The position numbers were made by a program, and so were the translations under genes. From a virus (taxonomy: Duplodnaviria > Heunggongvirae > Uroviricota > Caudoviricetes), in IMG/VR virus record IMGVR_UViG_3300014846_000028, positions 1-5,925 of that record: 5,925 nt of DNA; one strand, given 5' to 3'. Positions within the stretch are counted from its first letter, which is position 1. The number at the start of each line of letters is the position of its first letter. The notes under the pieces are model-generated. The model did not search any database. It was not told the origin of the DNA and saw only the letters and a program-made list of their open reading frames with translations. Positions 1 to 4,155 of this stretch are shown piece after piece.

Positions 1-537
1 CTGGCTGCTAAAAAAGTCAGATCGGGCCTGTCGGCTGCCGTTCTGGCACTGATTGCCGTCGGTGCGCCCGCGCCTGATATTCTCGACCAGTTTCTGGATG
101 AAAAAGAGGGTAACCACACTACGGCATACCGCGATGGTTCCGGCATCTGGACCATCTGTCGGGGGGCCACGATGGTGGATGGAAAACCCGTTTTTCCCGG
201 TATGAAACTGTCGAAGGAAAAATGCGACCAGGTCAACGCCATTGAGCGTGATAAGGCGCTGGCATGGGTGGAGAAAAACATCAAAGTGCCATTGAGCGAA
301 CCCCAGAAAGCGGGGATCGCGTCATTCTGTCCGTACAACATTGGTCCCGGTAAGTGTTTCCCGTCGACGTTTTATAAACGAATTAATGCAGGTGATCGCA
401 GGGGAGCGTGTGAGGCGATTCGCTGGTGGATTAAGGACGGTGGCAGAGACTGCCGTATTCGTTCAAACAACTGCTACGGTCAGGTATCCCGTCGTGACCA
501 GGAGAGTGCGCTGGCGTGCTGGGGTATCGACAGATAA
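1..537 (+). CDS. Phage endolysin (T4-lysozyme-like muramidase with N-terminal SAR-type segment), 5'-partial
   Basis: Frame 1 is open from position 1 to TAA at 535-537. The translation from position 1 reads LAAKKVRSGLSAAVLALIAVGAPAPDILDQFLDEKEGNHTTAYRDGSGIWTICRGAT..., a weakly hydrophobic Gly/Ala-rich segment followed by the E-x8-D-x5-T catalytic spacing (EG...RDGSGIWT) of T4-lysozyme-like and phage 21 R-type SAR endolysins. The C-terminal part matches the RrrD/R21 family as recalled. The start codon lies upstream of the window. Confidence 0.9.
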   Translation: MAAKKVRSGLSAAVLALIAVGAPAPDILDQFLDEKEGNHTTAYRDGSGIWTICRGATMVDGKPVFPGMKLSKEKCDQVNAIERDKALAWVEKNIKVPLSEPQKAGIASFCPYNIGPGKCFPSTFYKRINAGDRRGACEAIRWWIKDGGRDCRIRSNNCYGQVSRRDQESALACWGIDR

Positions 538-626
538 GCAGAATATTTTGCTGAAAAATAAGGCATGGCCACGCGGGCGGATAACACGAAATCCTGCGAA
601 CTGGCGAAACGTAAGTGAATAAAAGT

Positions 627-666
627 AAAAACCCCGTTTGTTGGCAGCAAGCGGGGTTTTGTTTTT
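627..666 (+). terminator. Rho-independent terminator (9-bp GC-rich stem AAAACCCCG/CGGGGTTTT followed by TTTTGTTTTT)
   Basis: Perfect inverted repeat AAAACCCCG (627-636) and CGGGGTTTT (652-660) with a T-rich run to 666. It lies about 90 nt after the endolysin stop. An A-run upstream (621-630) would allow function on the minus strand too. Confidence 0.6.
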
Positions 667-731
667 ATGGCAGTAAGCTATGGGAGGCTGCCTTGATTGA
701 TTTTAGCAAACTGATTAGGGAGTTGCGACTC

Positions 732-827
732 ATGATTAGTCAATTACCAAACTGGAAATTTTTGCTGGTCTGGAGCATCCCTTTTTTATGGGTAGTATCC
801 CAGTTAATTGTGGCAATTAAGGGGTAG
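732..827 (+). CDS. Hypothetical small hydrophobic peptide A (31 aa from ATG 732; 44 aa if the in-frame TTG at 693 is used)
   Basis: ATG 732 is preceded by AGGGAG (717-722); the in-frame TTG 693 is preceded by GGGAGG (682-687). Translation is MISQLPNWKFLLVWSIPFLWVVSQLIVAIKG, a single predicted transmembrane segment. Its C-terminus (LIVAIKG) resembles that of peptide C (LVIALKS). Stop TAG 825-827 lies 2 nt before the next start. Confidence 0.25.
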   Translation: MISQLPNWKFLLVWSIPFLWVVSQLIVAIKG

Positions 828-829
828 CT

Positions 830-961
830 ATGTCAGACAAACTCATAACGCCGGCAAAGGTCCTGTGTGTGATTGTCGGTATTTCATTTTCACTAATGCT
901 GGTTGCTCTTTTTCTGTCCCTCGCCTGGGTGATGTTGTCTTCGTCGGGGCTGCTGGGGTGA
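830..961 (+). CDS. Hypothetical small membrane peptide B (43 aa, single predicted TM helix)
   Basis: ATG 830 is preceded by AAGGGG (820-824) at good spacing. Translation is MSDKLITPAKVLCVIVGISFSLMLVALFLSLAWVMLSSSGLLG: a Lys-containing N-terminus followed by a roughly 25-residue hydrophobic core. Stop TGA 959-961 overlaps the GTG start of peptide C. Confidence 0.35.
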   Translation: MSDKLITPAKVLCVIVGISFSLMLVALFLSLAWVMLSSSGLLG

Positions 962-1080
962 CAGTGACTGATGACATCAGCAGAGCGCTGGCTTTTGCTA
1001 TTAAGTGGGTGGCTGTTGGTATTGCTGTGTCTCCGATGCTATATGGGCTGGCAAAACTGGTCATTGCGCTGAAATCGTGA
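958..1080 (+). CDS. Hypothetical small hydrophobic peptide C (about 38-40 aa; GTG start at 958 or 964)
   Basis: Frame-1 ORF ending at TGA 1078-1080, translation (V)TVTDDISRALAFAIKWVAVGIAVSPMLYGLAKLVIALKS. GGGG at 955-958 lies upstream of GTG 964. The core RALAFAIKWVAVGIAV matches peptide D (RAMAFAIRIVAIAVLV), with many differences at third codon positions, which suggests coding constraint in this frame. Confidence 0.3.
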   Translation: MTVTDDISRALAFAIKWVAVGIAVSPMLYGLAKLVIALKS

Positions 1081-1091
1081 ACTTTAAAAAG

Positions 1092-1178
1092 ATGAGTGCT
1101 GAACTTATTCGGGCAATGGCATTTGCCATTCGTATTGTGGCCATTGCTGTTCTGGTCTGGGCAATTCGTTGGTGGTGA
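1092..1178 (+). CDS. Hypothetical small hydrophobic peptide D (28 aa), paralogous to peptide C
   Basis: ATG 1092 to TGA 1176-1178, translation MSAELIRAMAFAIRIVAIAVLVWAIRWW. The stop is 1 nt before the Rz ATG at 1180. There is no strong Shine-Dalgarno, so any translation may depend on coupling to peptide C, which ends 11 nt upstream. Confidence 0.3.
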   Translation: MSAELIRAMAFAIRIVAIAVLVWAIRWW

Positions 1179-1179
1179 T

Positions 1180-1638
1180 ATGAACCGTGTTCTGTGTGTG
1201 GTGATTATTGTCATGCTGGTGGCCTGTGGTGCGCTTAGTCTGGGGCTGAATCATTACCGTGATAACGCCATAACCTACAAAGAGCAGCGCGATAAAAAAG
1301 TCAGTGAGCTGGAGCAGGCAAATGCAACCATTACTGATATGCAGCAGCGCCAGCGTGATGTTGCTGCACTTGATGCCAGATACTCGAGGGAATTAGCCGA
1401 TGCGAGAGCTGAAAATGAAACTCTGCGCGCTGACGTTGCCGCTGGTCGTAAGCGCCTGCGTATCAACGCCACCTGTCCAGGTCCCGTGCGTGAAGCCACC
1501 GGCACCGCCCGCGTGGATAATGCAACCGGCCCCCGACTGGCAGACACCGCCGCATTATTTCACCCTCAGAGAGCGGTTGATGACAATGCAGAAGCAGCTG
1601 GAAGGGGCGCAGGAATATATCCGCACTCAGTGCACTAA
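1180..1638 (+). CDS. Rz: i-spanin Rz (lambda Rz-like), with C-terminal region out of frame after about codon 125
   Basis: Translation [99 protein letters not shown]...RLADTA aligns closely with lambda Rz as recalled ([39 protein letters not shown]...RLADTAERDYFTLRERL...). After RLADTA this frame reads unrelated sequence ([28 protein letters not shown]) to TGA 1636-1638, while the conserved Rz C-terminus (YFTLRERLMTMQKQLEGAQEYIRTQC) appears in the +1 frame. Confidence 0.8.
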   Translation: [152 protein letters not shown]

Positions 1639-1669
1639 GCTGGCTTTTTATTATCCGGAGAATGCATGA
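1400..1669 (+). CDS. Rz1: o-spanin Rz1 lipoprotein embedded in Rz (+1 frame); here the frame runs on into the Rz C-terminal domain (89-aa fusion ORF)
   Basis: Translation MRELKMKLCALTLPLVVSACVSTPPVQVPCVKPPAPPAWIMQPAPDWQTPP... has a signal peptide, a lipobox (LVVSAC) and a Pro-rich mature region matching lambda Rz1 as recalled (MLKLKMMLCVMMLPLVVVGCTSKQSVSQCVKPPPPPAWIMQPPPDWQTPLNGIISPSERG). Instead of stopping after DWQTP it continues as HYFTLRERLMTMQKQLEGAQEYIRTQCTKLAFYYPENA to TGA 1667-1669. Confidence 0.55.
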   Translation: MRELKMKLCALTLPLVVSACVSTPPVQVPCVKPPAPPAWIMQPAPDWQTPPHYFTLRERLMTMQKQLEGAQEYIRTQCTKLAFYYPENA

Positions 1670-1890
1670 AGAAATTACTGGTAACCGTAAAGCCTTTTCA
1701 GGGAACAATTCCGTTCCGTATTTTGCAGCGTGGTCGTGTTCTTGTTGAAGGTTCGTTCAGTGGTAAATGTACGCAATTACATTCCCGGACCTTTCAGGTG
1801 AATGCCACGAATGAAGAGCTAACCGTTGAGTGTACGATGAATGCCGCTAAATGCCGCATGGTATCCGCTGCATTACAGCCAGTGTGTTGA
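1666..1890 (+). CDS. Hypothetical protein (74 aa, Cys-containing), start overlapping the spanin-frame stop (ATGA)
   Basis: ATG 1666 is preceded by GGAG (1655-1658). Translation is MKKLLVTVKPFQGTIPFRILQRGRVLVEGSFSGKCTQLHSRTFQVNATNEELTVECTMNAAKCRMVSAALQPVC. I do not recognise a family; the call rests on ORF, RBS and coupling only. Confidence 0.4.
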   Translation: MKKLLVTVKPFQGTIPFRILQRGRVLVEGSFSGKCTQLHSRTFQVNATNEELTVECTMNAAKCRMVSAALQPVC

Positions 1891-2171
1891 GTGACCTTAT
1901 TATCCATGCGCGGTATTGTCGCCGTATTCCTGCATTAACAGAGACCGCAGCCCGACAGGGAGACTCCTCTGCGAGAGTGTGCGGGGATAATCAAAAACGA
2001 TACACACCGGGGTTTACCGCGTTAACGGAGCGCGGCGTTGTCCCCTCATGGTCGCTGGTCCGGTGCGATGGTGGAAGAAACCGGACGATGTGTTACCTCG
2101 CAAGCTCTGTTATGTCATGTGTCTGATTTGTGATTTAAGTCGGATAATTGTCGTTGCCATTAAACAGAGGA

Positions 2172-2213
2172 TTGATGACCGACAGGGTGGCATTGTTAGA
2201 ATAAGACTTATTC
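2172..2213 (+). promoter_or_regulatory. Candidate sigma70-type promoter (-35 ATGACC/TTGATG, -10 TAGAAT) with an overlapping 15-bp palindrome GAATAAGACTTATTC (2199-2213), upstream of the lipoprotein gene
   Basis: TAGAAT at 2197-2202 lies 16 nt downstream of ATGACC (2175-2180). The perfect 7-bp-arm palindrome overlaps the -10 and predicted start region, where an operator would sit. It follows a roughly 330-nt non-coding stretch. Confidence 0.3.
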
Positions 2214-2234
2214 TTATCTGTGCCGGGAATGAAA

Positions 2235-2561
2235 ATGAAAAGAAATCTTCCGTTAATTATTTTGTTGTCTTCTCTGGTTATGGGCTGTACGCAACATAAA
2301 ACAGATATGCCCCGACAGTTGGTTAAGGCATTACCACAATATCCGGCCTATGCAGCGGCAAATTATATAAAGGGACGGGTTGATGTGAAGTTTGATATTG
2401 GTGCTGATGGTACTGTCACCCGAATTGAGTTTATCCGTTCAGAGCCGCACCATTTGTTTGATGAGCAGGTTGTAAAGGCGATGGCAAAATGGCGATTTGA
2501 GAAGGACAGGCCGTGTAAAGGCGTGAAGAAAACGTTTATCTTTAGTCCTTCTGCACCCTGA
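2235..2561 (+). CDS. Lipoprotein consisting of a signal peptide, lipobox and a TonB C-terminal-like domain (TonB_C family)
   Basis: ATG 2235 (GGGAA upstream; alternative in-frame starts GTG 2220 and ATG 2229). N-terminus MKRNLPLIILLSSLVMGC is a signal peptide with lipobox LVMG/C and Thr at +2. The mature region PQYPAYAAANYIKGRVDVKFDIGADGTVTRIEFIRSEPHHLFDEQVVKAMAKWRFE aligns with the E. coli TonB C-terminal domain as recalled ([56 protein letters not shown]). Stop TGA 2559-2561. Confidence 0.8.
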   Translation: MKRNLPLIILLSSLVMGCTQHKTDMPRQLVKALPQYPAYAAANYIKGRVDVKFDIGADGTVTRIEFIRSEPHHLFDEQVVKAMAKWRFEKDRPCKGVKKTFIFSPSAP

Positions 2562-2692
2562 TTATTTCATCAGAAATTAATTATCACTCTGTTGTTATTC
2601 TGTACATCCCGGCAGGGTAAGTCTTGTTCCGTCGGATATGAAGATGAAATATTGTTGGAGGACAGTGGGTACCTGCTCCTGTAACCGAACGT

Positions 2693-2893
2693 TCATTTCT
2701 CGTTATTTTTCATGCTGGCCGGGCGCAGATGCGTTGCATCTGTTGCCAGCCTTCTCCTGCAGGCTTCAATAACCCACGCTGAAAAGTTACCGGACCCTTT
2801 ATGCTCAAGGGCGATGCTGATCTGTTCAATCATGTGATTGGGGAAACGGATATTGCGGGTTGTGGTTCTGCGGGTCCGGTTTTTCGATGACAT
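2693..2893 (-). CDS. Small ribbon-helix-helix-like protein (66 aa), resembling the prophage YlcI/DUF3950 family as recalled
   Basis: Minus-strand ATG at 2893 with AAGGAA 6 nt upstream. Translation MSSKNRTRRTTTRNIRFPNHMIEQISIALEHKGSGNFSAWVIEACRRRLATDATHLRPASMKNNEK has a basic N-terminus, a short strand-like RNIRFP and two predicted helices, typical of Arc/MetJ/CopG-type folds. Divergent from the HNH gene. Confidence 0.75.
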   Translation of the reverse strand: MSSKNRTRRTTTRNIRFPNHMIEQISIALEHKGSGNFSAWVIEACRRRLATDATHLRPASMKNNEK

Positions 2894-2934
2894 ATTTATT
2901 TCCTTTACTGATTGTCATATGACGGGGATTTTAC

Positions 2935-3300
2935 ATGGCTGAGCTTCGTACACTCCAGAGCAGAATCAAAACACTGAATACCCGACGGGTGAATATTCTG
3001 AAGGGGGAACAGCGTCGTGTCAGTGGCAGTGCACGTGTTTCCCTCAAGCGTCATATCTGGCTCAGGGACGCCGGGCAGTGCTGTATCTGTGGTCGTGTGG
3101 TTGACCTCTGTGACAGTGAACTTGATCACCGAATTGCACTTCAGTTCGGTGGTGGTAATGAGGAGACGAATCTCTGGACGCTCTGTACCGAATGCCATCG
3201 ACAAAAGTCTGCTCGTGAAGCGGCGGGTGGTATGCCGGACCCGACGCTGCCGGAGGTGTCCGGAGGTAGTGGCAGAGCGGACGACATCATCGGACTGTAA
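2935..3300 (+). CDS. HNH endonuclease (phage terminase-associated type)
   Basis: Translation contains CCICGRVVDLCDSELDHRIALQFGGGNEETNLWTLCTECHRQK, the canonical HNH motif (CxxC...DH...N...CxxCH). GGGG RBS upstream of ATG 2935. Position immediately upstream of the cos region and TerS matches HK97-like packaging modules. Confidence 0.9.
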   Translation: MAELRTLQSRIKTLNTRRVNILKGEQRRVSGSARVSLKRHIWLRDAGQCCICGRVVDLCDSELDHRIALQFGGGNEETNLWTLCTECHRQKSAREAAGGMPDPTLPEVSGGSGRADDIIGL

Positions 3301-3393
3301 CCCGACCCGGGGGGGGGGATCATCCGGCGTAAAAAACGATCGCTTTGGACACCGCGCCCCCTCTCACGCAGAGAAAAAATTCCCGTTTCAGGG

Positions 3394-3519
3394 CAGTTAA
3401 CATGTTAACTGGCTTCCCGGGCATTTTTGCGGTTTTTATCTTTATTATTCAGTTTGTTGTGCGGAAAAAATGTTAACTGGCTTTTTCAGCAAATGTTAAC
3501 CAGGCAGCAGTTAACATTT
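3394..3519. repeat. Cluster of five GTTAAC-core sites (CAGTTAACAT / ATGTTAACTG in both orientations), including an 18-bp perfect palindrome and a 10-bp inverted repeat; probable terminase-binding (cosB-like) elements
   Basis: Perfect palindrome CAGTTAACATGTTAACTG at 3394-3411; ATGTTAACTGGCTT at 3402-3415 and again at 3470-3483; inverted repeat AAATGTTAAC (3491-3500) and GTTAACATTT (3510-3519) separated by 9 nt. I found only one other GTTAAC in the window (about 2021). The cluster sits between HNH and TerS, with an AT-rich stretch at 3421-3460 between copies. Confidence 0.5.
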
Positions 3520-3591
3520 GCGGCATGAGACGCCGGGAAAAATGGGCTGAACCATACCCGGCTGAGTGCGTTCTGGACCCGGGAGGAGGCT

Positions 3592-4155
3592 GTGCTGACA
3601 ACGCAAAAACGAAAATTTGCGCTGGCGCTCATGTCCGGGAAAAACAAAACAGCGTCAGCCATTGCCGCCGGTTATTCGGCGAAGACCGCCAGGGTTAAAG
3701 GCTCGCAGCTGGCAAAAGATCCGGAGGTGCTTGCGTTTATAGCCCGTAAACAATGCGAGACGGTGGAGGTGGATGAGGTTCCTGTTTACCGGCAGAAAAA
3801 ATCAGAGCAGGAGGATAAACCCCGTCGTCGTGAGGCGGCTGCAATACCACAGCCGGACGAAAACAATCCGGAGATGCCACCGTCCGTGGTGATATCTCCT
3901 GGTATTGAGTATATGGAGGACGGTCTTCCCGATCCGGTGAAAGCGATGGGGCGTCTTCTGGTGGAGAACATTAATACCGACCCCAGGCTGGCGCTGGATG
4001 CGGCTTATAAGCTGGCGCAGTTCACGCACCACAAAAAAGGGGATGCCGGTAAAAAATCGGCAAAAGGTGACGCGGCGAAAAAAGCGGCTAACCGTTTTGC
4101 GGTGCCACCACCACCCCGCCTGGTGGTGAATAATGATAACGAGGGGAACGGATGA
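3592..4155 (+). CDS. terS: Terminase small subunit (Terminase_2-like family)
   Basis: GTG 3592 is preceded by GGGAGGAGG (3581-3589). The N-terminal region KRKFALALMSGKNKTASAIAAGYSAKTARVKGSQLAKDPEV matches the conserved AGYSxKTA...GSxL signature of phage small terminase subunits. An acidic, Pro-rich C-terminal tail follows. Stop TGA 4153-4155 overlaps the TerL ATG (ATGA). Confidence 0.85.
   Translation: MLTTQKRKFALALMSGKNKTASAIAAGYSAKTARVKGSQLAKDPEVLAFIARKQCETVEVDEVPVYRQKKSEQEDKPRRREAAAIPQPDENNPEMPPSVVISPGIEYMEDGLPDPVKAMGRLLVENINTDPRLALDAAYKLAQFTHHKKGDAGKKSAKGDAAKKAANRFAVPPPPRLVVNNDNEGNG

Follow-up and report, generated by a model that had tools for sequence, protein, structure and literature searches.

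The spanin locus in this stretch of viral DNA (5,925 nucleotides, analyzed in full and called the window below) belongs to the embedded lambda Rz/Rz1 family but is disrupted, by an ordinary inactivating lesion or a sequence error, and encodes no new kind of lysis protein. We consider it fairly likely that the Rz/Rz1 pair has suffered a real loss-of-function mutation, in the form of a private, recent and complex frameshift, and one such lesion damages both genes because Rz and Rz1 share DNA in different frames. The window covers a junction of late genes in a prophage of the lambdoid, E. coli type; over its whole length, the best complete E. coli genome (SW070917) is 97.3% identical and the best phage record 94.7% identical. 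Outside the spanin genes, its features are, in order:

1 to 537, plus strand: endolysin (phage lysozyme), an ORF 5'-truncated at the window edge and the upstream member of the lysis cassette
830 to 961: small, very hydrophobic ORF of 43 aa, in a group of three or four small hydrophobic ORFs between the endolysin and Rz/Rz1
925 to 1080: small, very hydrophobic ORF of 51 aa, in the same interval
1092 to 1178: small, very hydrophobic ORF of 28 aa, in the same interval
1666 to 1890, plus strand: 74-aa ORF (phrog_2571, function unknown), whose ATG overlaps the TGA at 1667-1669
2226 to 2561: moron encoding a TonB_C-domain lipoprotein (Pfam TonB C-terminal domain; lipobox LVMGC), a complete ORF
Minus strand, between the TonB_C lipoprotein and the HNH endonuclease: DUF3950 gene
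Next: HNH endonuclease of 121 aa, a complete ORF of the same length as in relatives
Between the HNH endonuclease and TerS: repeat-rich, likely cos region
Next: TerS of 187 aa, a complete ORF of the same length as in relatives
Next: TerL of 553 aa, a complete ORF of the same length as in relatives

The endolysin, whose start codon lies upstream of the window edge, has homologues in relatives that are annotated as lysozyme or carry PF00959. In those relatives the order is holin, endolysin, small ORFs and Rz, and the window pair occupies the same position in the lysis cassette, downstream of an endolysin that ends at 537. The spanin features themselves are these:

1180 to 1638, plus strand: truncated i-spanin (Rz) ORF of 152 aa, with ATG at 1180 and TAA at 1636-1638
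1400 to 1669, plus strand: Rz1-frame ORF of 89 aa, in frame +1 to Rz, with ATG at 1400 and TGA at 1667-1669
1551 to 1553, plus strand: the lesion, CGC in place of TGAACGGG, a net change of -5 nt, which moves each of the three frames by one position

In the Rz ORF, native residues 1-124 (1180-1551) give way to 28 out-of-frame residues (1552-1635). The ORF keeps the transmembrane helix (residues 4-23), coiled-coil 1 (CC1) and a linker with Cys99; hydropathy peaks at a mean of 2.85 over residues 4-22, as befits an N-terminal membrane anchor, and cysteines stand at 6, 16 and 99. A complete i-spanin periplasmic domain (i.e., CC1, linker, coiled-coil 2 [CC2] and Rz1-binding end) is absent from this ORF. 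The Rz1-frame ORF begins with native Rz1 residues 1-50 (1400-1549), passes through a new Pro51 and His52 (1550-1555) and ends with Rz residues 128-164 (1556-1666), which are the last 37 of that protein, comprise the distal coiled-coil and the C-terminal Cys, and are identical to those of the relative. An o-spanin lipoprotein signal is present as a signal peptide and a lipobox, LVVSAC, with the Cys20 codon at 1457-1459 and no Asp after the Cys; the lipobox was called by direct reading of the sequence. The native o-spanin segment that follows the short proline-rich domain is absent from the Rz1-frame ORF. In the closest E. coli relative (strain G1/2), Rz1 is an intact protein of 61 aa with the tail LNGIISPSESG, which is the tail replaced in the window ORF, and the original IISPSESG and its stop now lie in the third frame.

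Pfam profiles divide along the same line. The 152-aa ORF matches Phage_lysis (PF03245) over profile positions 1-98 of 126, and the 89-aa ORF matches Rz1 (PF06085) over positions 1-30 of 41 and then Phage_lysis over positions 99-125 of 126 (E 5.8e-8); in an intact relative, Phage_lysis positions 1-125 lie within one ORF. The clean split of the profile across two ORFs means that the presence of the Rz C terminus in the Rz1 frame is not due to chance. Thus, the original prediction was right that Rz loses its distal coiled-coil and C terminus and that Rz1 becomes fused to a C-terminal segment of Rz.

The natural reference for these changes is the embedded lambda-type pair of 164-aa Rz and 61-aa Rz1 (WP_032270924.1; strains G1/2 and SW070917) found in E. 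coli lambdoid and Stx-type prophages. The window shares with that allele the position after the endolysin and small ORFs, the transmembrane helix, CC1, linker, lipobox and proline-rich region, and the ATGA-overlapped 74-aa ORF. It differs in that its Rz is 12 residues shorter and carries 28 wrong residues, in that its Rz1 is 28 residues longer and carries Rz 128-164, and in that its o-spanin ORF overruns the i-spanin ORF and so is no longer embedded: Rz ends at 1638 and the Rz1-frame ORF at 1669, whereas the G1/2 locus keeps the embedded architecture. The TGA at 1667-1669, which ends Rz in intact relatives through the ATGA overlap, ends the Rz1-frame fusion in the window; in G1/2 the equivalent of the 74-aa ORF is the CDS at 6072-6296, overlapping Rz at 5581-6075. 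Separately, Rz length is polymorphic among relatives, at 155 or 164 aa (window 1626-1669; about 160-175 in a metagenome relative, L009): some alleles stop at a TAG where others have CTG, and the latter continue for 9 more residues to the TGA that is overlapped by the ATG of the following ORF.

The lesion was defined by nucleotide alignment of the window with the G1/2 locus and with phage vB_EcoS-569R3. Relatives read ...GACACCGC TGAACGGG ATTATTTC..., and the window reads ...GACACCGC CGC ATTATTTC...; the smallest set of changes that accounts for this is a T>C substitution at 1551, the loss of GAACG and a G>C substitution at 1553. The junction form in the window is CGCCGCATT, and the intact form of the same stretch is CGCTGAACGGGATT. 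Given that two substitutions accompany the 5-nt loss, this is a complex lesion and not a plain deletion. The net 5-nt difference had been proposed from the DNA expected on the model of lambda, and both aligned loci bear it out; comparison with related Rz/Rz1 at the nucleotide level, which had been recommended at that time, shows the relatives to be intact and the lesion to be a replacement of 8 nt by 3 nt. The site is otherwise strongly conserved: among 17 relatives sampled, with identities as low as about 77%, 16 preserve ACACCGCTGAACGGGATTATTTC, and in the exception, L009, the lesion site differs by three substitutions, all of them in frame. In L009 these form a cluster at 72-80, corresponding to window positions of about 1549-1553, that changes GCTGAACGG to GTTACACGG in frame, with AE becoming VT in Rz and N becoming H in Rz1. 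Based on this cluster, the lesion site may be locally mutable. The lesion also lengthens a direct repeat, CACCGCC (1503 and 1545), and an inverted repeat, ATAATGC/GCATTAT (1517 and 1552). A templated-mutation origin was considered and set aside as too weak to claim, the gain in repeat length being only about 3 nt and the folding energy unremarkable (z 0.12).

How rare is the junction? A 53-nt probe spanning it was compared with 9,213 homologous places in 3,968 of the 5,426 complete E. coli genomes, and the junction was absent from all of them; the best place in every record was at most 87.9% identical, and the matches listed span 58 bases for the 53 query bases. The same probe did not find the junction in 401 phage records. 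No exact match to the 28-nt and 21-nt junction patterns turned up in GTDB species representatives, in IMG/VR or in JGI metagenome contigs, and exact look-ups of the 152-aa, 180-aa and 89-aa products in an index of 153 billion genes returned no record. Many contigs carry exactly the TerL and TerS of the window, and none of them carries its lysis region; the best of these, L009, is 99.55% identical from 1476 onward but is in frame. Over 1100-1700, the 13 closest E. coli records match the window at 98.7% identity and span 606 bases to its 601, and the two of them that were read, G1/2 and SW070917, encode an intact 164-aa Rz. Alignment to SW070917, the nearest complete genome, shows no internal indel other than the lesion in 5.9 kb; 1401-1600 contains just two substitutions, both flanking it, and 601-3800 otherwise holds 12 differing positions. 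Judged from these sequence comparisons, the lesion is private and evolutionarily young.

The functional consequences can be read against lambda genetics, in an argument that transfers loss of function from lambda Rz and Rz1 to the window allele. By alignment to the lambda sequences, the Rz frame of the window is lost after the equivalent of lambda A123 (with the break at lambda residue 124), and the change in the Rz1 frame falls at the equivalent of lambda L50, where the first new residue is Pro. The domain split given by this alignment is independently supported by Pfam. A break at that point removes practically the whole of CC2, together with the C-terminal Cys. Lambda Rz consists of a transmembrane helix (residues 1-24), CC1 (27-87) and CC2 (121-150); nonsense alleles recovered across its periplasmic domain are lysis-defective, as are stops engineered at positions 151 and 152, whereas R153 alone can be spared, and chain length is strictly constrained (Cahill et al. 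2017, PMC5295617). Neither Q151X nor C152X of lambda Rz accumulates. In lambda Rz1, L50P, L50R and I54N are lysis-defective, and truncation is tolerated only back to position 55 (PMC5295617). Both spanin products of the window are therefore predicted to be inactive, since lambda Rz truncations and Rz1 L50P are lysis-defective, and lambda genetics predicts that the window allele would give no support to disruption of the outer membrane.

We posit the following mechanism. The i-spanin would keep its membrane anchor, proximal coiled-coil and linker and would lose CC2, the C-terminal cysteine and the Rz1-binding end. The o-spanin lipoprotein would keep its lipid-attachment signal and proline-rich region, would bear the Leu-to-Pro change at the L50 equivalent, and would have exchanged its last 11 residues for an orphaned CC2 segment of Rz. 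No periplasm-spanning complex would then be expected, because the Rz1-binding end of Rz would itself be tethered to the outer membrane. The predicted phenotype is that of a spanin null, in which holin and endolysin would kill the cell and degrade the wall and the outer membrane would be left undisrupted; where that membrane is stabilized (by millimolar Mg2+ or a lack of shear), cells would round up into spheres and would not burst. Because holin triggering already kills the cell, the lesion has no obvious benefit for the host and is costly to the phage, and we infer that this balance fits a lesion that is private and recent.

The window ORF is not the only one of its general kind. A search with the 89-aa ORF found other proteins that match both PF06085 and PF03245, and in the fusion ORFs and decayed spanin genes of other E. 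coli prophages (P0121-P0128, P0166, P0178, P0198 and P0205) both the junction positions and the kinds of lesion differ; the DWQTP-PH-YFTLRERL junction of the window is in none of these other fusions. One example of such a fusion in the prophage family of the window is in GCA_045581165.1. P0121 likewise comes from that family, and its locus (L014) carries a 1-nt loss in a C5 run and a 2-nt AG duplication about 20 nt upstream. P0166 adjoins a TrkH-family gene, in a region that we take to resemble the Rac prophage of E. coli K-12. Many of the fusion ORFs come from ENA contigs of about 3.5 kb; the two that were read (P0126 and P0129) are lambda-like with differing junctions, and we infer that these contigs are error-rich long-read copies of lambda DNA. 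The window and the sporadic fusions belong to one class of accident, in which a frame change in the overlap joins the Rz1 N terminus to the Rz C terminus, and they differ in that each has its own junction position and kind of lesion. Since the junctions are all different, the fusions are independent, sporadic accidents and not a lineage.

Two explanations offered in the original prediction, prophage decay and sequencing error, are those that the evidence favors. In the second of these, Rz and Rz1 would truly be intact, and the change would stem from sequencing, consensus polishing, assembly across paralogous prophages, or cloning. We hold this to be possible, though on the unlikely side. The junction is found in no other sequence searched; related Rz copies, with a median of 2 and up to 12 per E. 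coli genome, invite consensus problems; the lesion falls precisely on the three-substitution cluster that separates two close alleles, as seen in L009; and the other database fusions look error-derived, as judged from the lesions at L014 and the short ENA contigs. Set against an artifact are the lack of any other indel in 5.9 kb relative to the nearest genome and the state of a G10 homopolymer at 3309-3318, just after the stop of the HNH gene, whose length is that of the nearest complete genome; together these indicate that the assembly is not generally indel-prone. In addition, a 5-nt loss with two flanking substitutions in nonrepetitive sequence is not a typical base-calling error or homopolymer slip, and de Bruijn assembly, we reason, cannot invent k-mers that are missing from the reads. 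The lesion is thus probably biological and not technical. A real mutation has points against it as well: a lesion of this complexity is less common than a simple slip, and the window contains no other decay and no independent sign of degeneration, the other window genes checked being complete ORFs. In the prophages of G1/2 and SW070917, TerL, capsid or portal genes are frameshifted and a YdfR-family gene is truncated, so this prophage lineage is commonly in a decaying state.

Could the arrangement instead be functional? The original prediction had also raised a natural, covalently linked functional variant, and this suggestion is not supported, since the sharing of exactly this arrangement by close relatives, which was to argue for it, was seen in none of those searched. 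In one version, we considered a re-partitioned spanin with CC1 on the inner-membrane protein and CC2 on the outer-membrane lipoprotein, which we regard as very improbable, and just as improbable is the accompanying proposal that the membranes would be joined by heterotypic, SNARE-like zippering of CC1 and CC2 in place of end-to-end Rz-Rz1 binding. Both ORFs remain uninterrupted and retain the signals that target them to their membranes, the segment that has moved is Rz 128-164 in unaltered form, and the published spanin model has CC1 and CC2 collapse together during fusion (PMC5295617). Yet the arrangement is a singleton that no relative shares, the truncated Rz trails a 28-aa out-of-frame tail that is no tidy adaptation, the junction creates a Leu-to-Pro change in Rz1 known to be lysis-defective, lambda Rz has a strict chain-length requirement (PMC5295617), and the junctions of the other fusions are scattered. 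Alternatively, the lesion might be suppressed in translation, with some ribosomes in the Rz frame slipping +1 at UUU C (1558-1561) into the Rz1 frame, an event to which we attach next to no likelihood; the supposed product, a near-full-length Rz with AALF for AERDYF, merits equally little credence. Direct reading of the sequence shows that tRNA-Phe could re-pair from UUU to UUC and that the product would regain CC2 and the C-terminal Cys, but the sequence offers neither a visible stimulatory element nor an upstream Shine-Dalgarno-like motif, and the next codon, CAC, is neither a stop nor rare. Moreover, the product would have 2 residues fewer, although Rz is reported to be sensitive to its length, Rz1 would stay damaged regardless, and the recoding site is not conserved, as relatives are in frame. 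A programmed +1 frameshift site was accordingly rejected, on sequence reading only: UUU C is present, but with neither a stimulator nor conservation.

Two further candidates were rejected. The 89-aa ORF resembles a u-spanin (phage T1 gp11) in combining an outer-membrane lipoprotein signal and a periplasmic segment in a single polypeptide. A u-spanin requires a C-terminal transmembrane anchor (PMC5295617, PMC6139136), and the 89-aa ORF differs in having none; the maximum 19-residue hydropathy in its C-terminal half is -0.37. The TonB_C lipoprotein at 2226-2561 was considered as a back-up spanin in view of its PHROGs label, "Rz-like spanin" (phrog_1267, E 6e-43), and was classed as a moron instead. 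It has a TonB C-terminal fold by Pfam and no partner gene, and it is present in relatives with intact Rz/Rz1 and absent from other intact ones; the label is probably misleading. The block of about 600 bp that contains it (2088-2682) is missing from near-identical relatives (L003-L005) and so behaves as a moron cassette. There is also a formal likeness to the overlapped type of spanin (phage P2 LysB/LysC), in that the o-spanin-frame ORF of the window begins within the i-spanin-frame ORF and runs past its end, but the layout in the window is a frameshift by-product in an embedded-type family. Kongari et al. (2018, PMC6139136) found no spanin family in which embedded and overlapped members occur together.

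If the frameshift is a real mutation, as we favor, its biological importance is small. Spanin lesions of this kind belong to the usual course of prophage decay, and a prophage whose spanin is broken would be expected to release progeny poorly where the outer membrane is stabilized. The locus is more valuable as a cautionary example. When one gene is embedded in another, a single indel harms both proteins and leaves two tidy-looking ORFs, and software that calls spanins automatically would report this locus as "overlapped architecture" or a novel fusion, with one ORF matching both the Rz1 and Rz Pfam families. Were the split coiled-coil reading true, the window would be a natural experiment in which the Rz hairpin is assembled in trans, and a functional arrangement would have direct consequences for the hairpin-collapse mechanism proposed for spanin membrane fusion.

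Several observations concern the rest of the window. The endolysin allele is more diverged than its surroundings, with 70 substitutions in the first 600 nt against SW070917 and 12 in the next 3,200 nt, and its N terminus differs as well; this divergence suggests a recombination boundary near position 600. The lack of an ATG at window position 4 had been considered as a second lesion, at the endolysin start, and was attributed to the diverged allele and its start upstream of the window edge. Directly 3' of the endolysin stop, at 628-670, is a strong intrinsic-terminator-like hairpin (a 15-pair stem followed by a T-run), which lies inside the expected late operon and is presumably read through under Q antitermination. 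The small hydrophobic ORFs at 830-961, 925-1080 and 1092-1178 are conserved in relatives, where they are annotated as hypothetical; the latter two share their PHROG hits (4493 and 3246, function unknown) and have the look of tandem paralogues. Finally, between the HNH endonuclease gene and terS, positions 3393-3521 hold clustered direct and inverted copies of (A)ATGTTAAC(TG), which are plausibly terminase or cos recognition sites.
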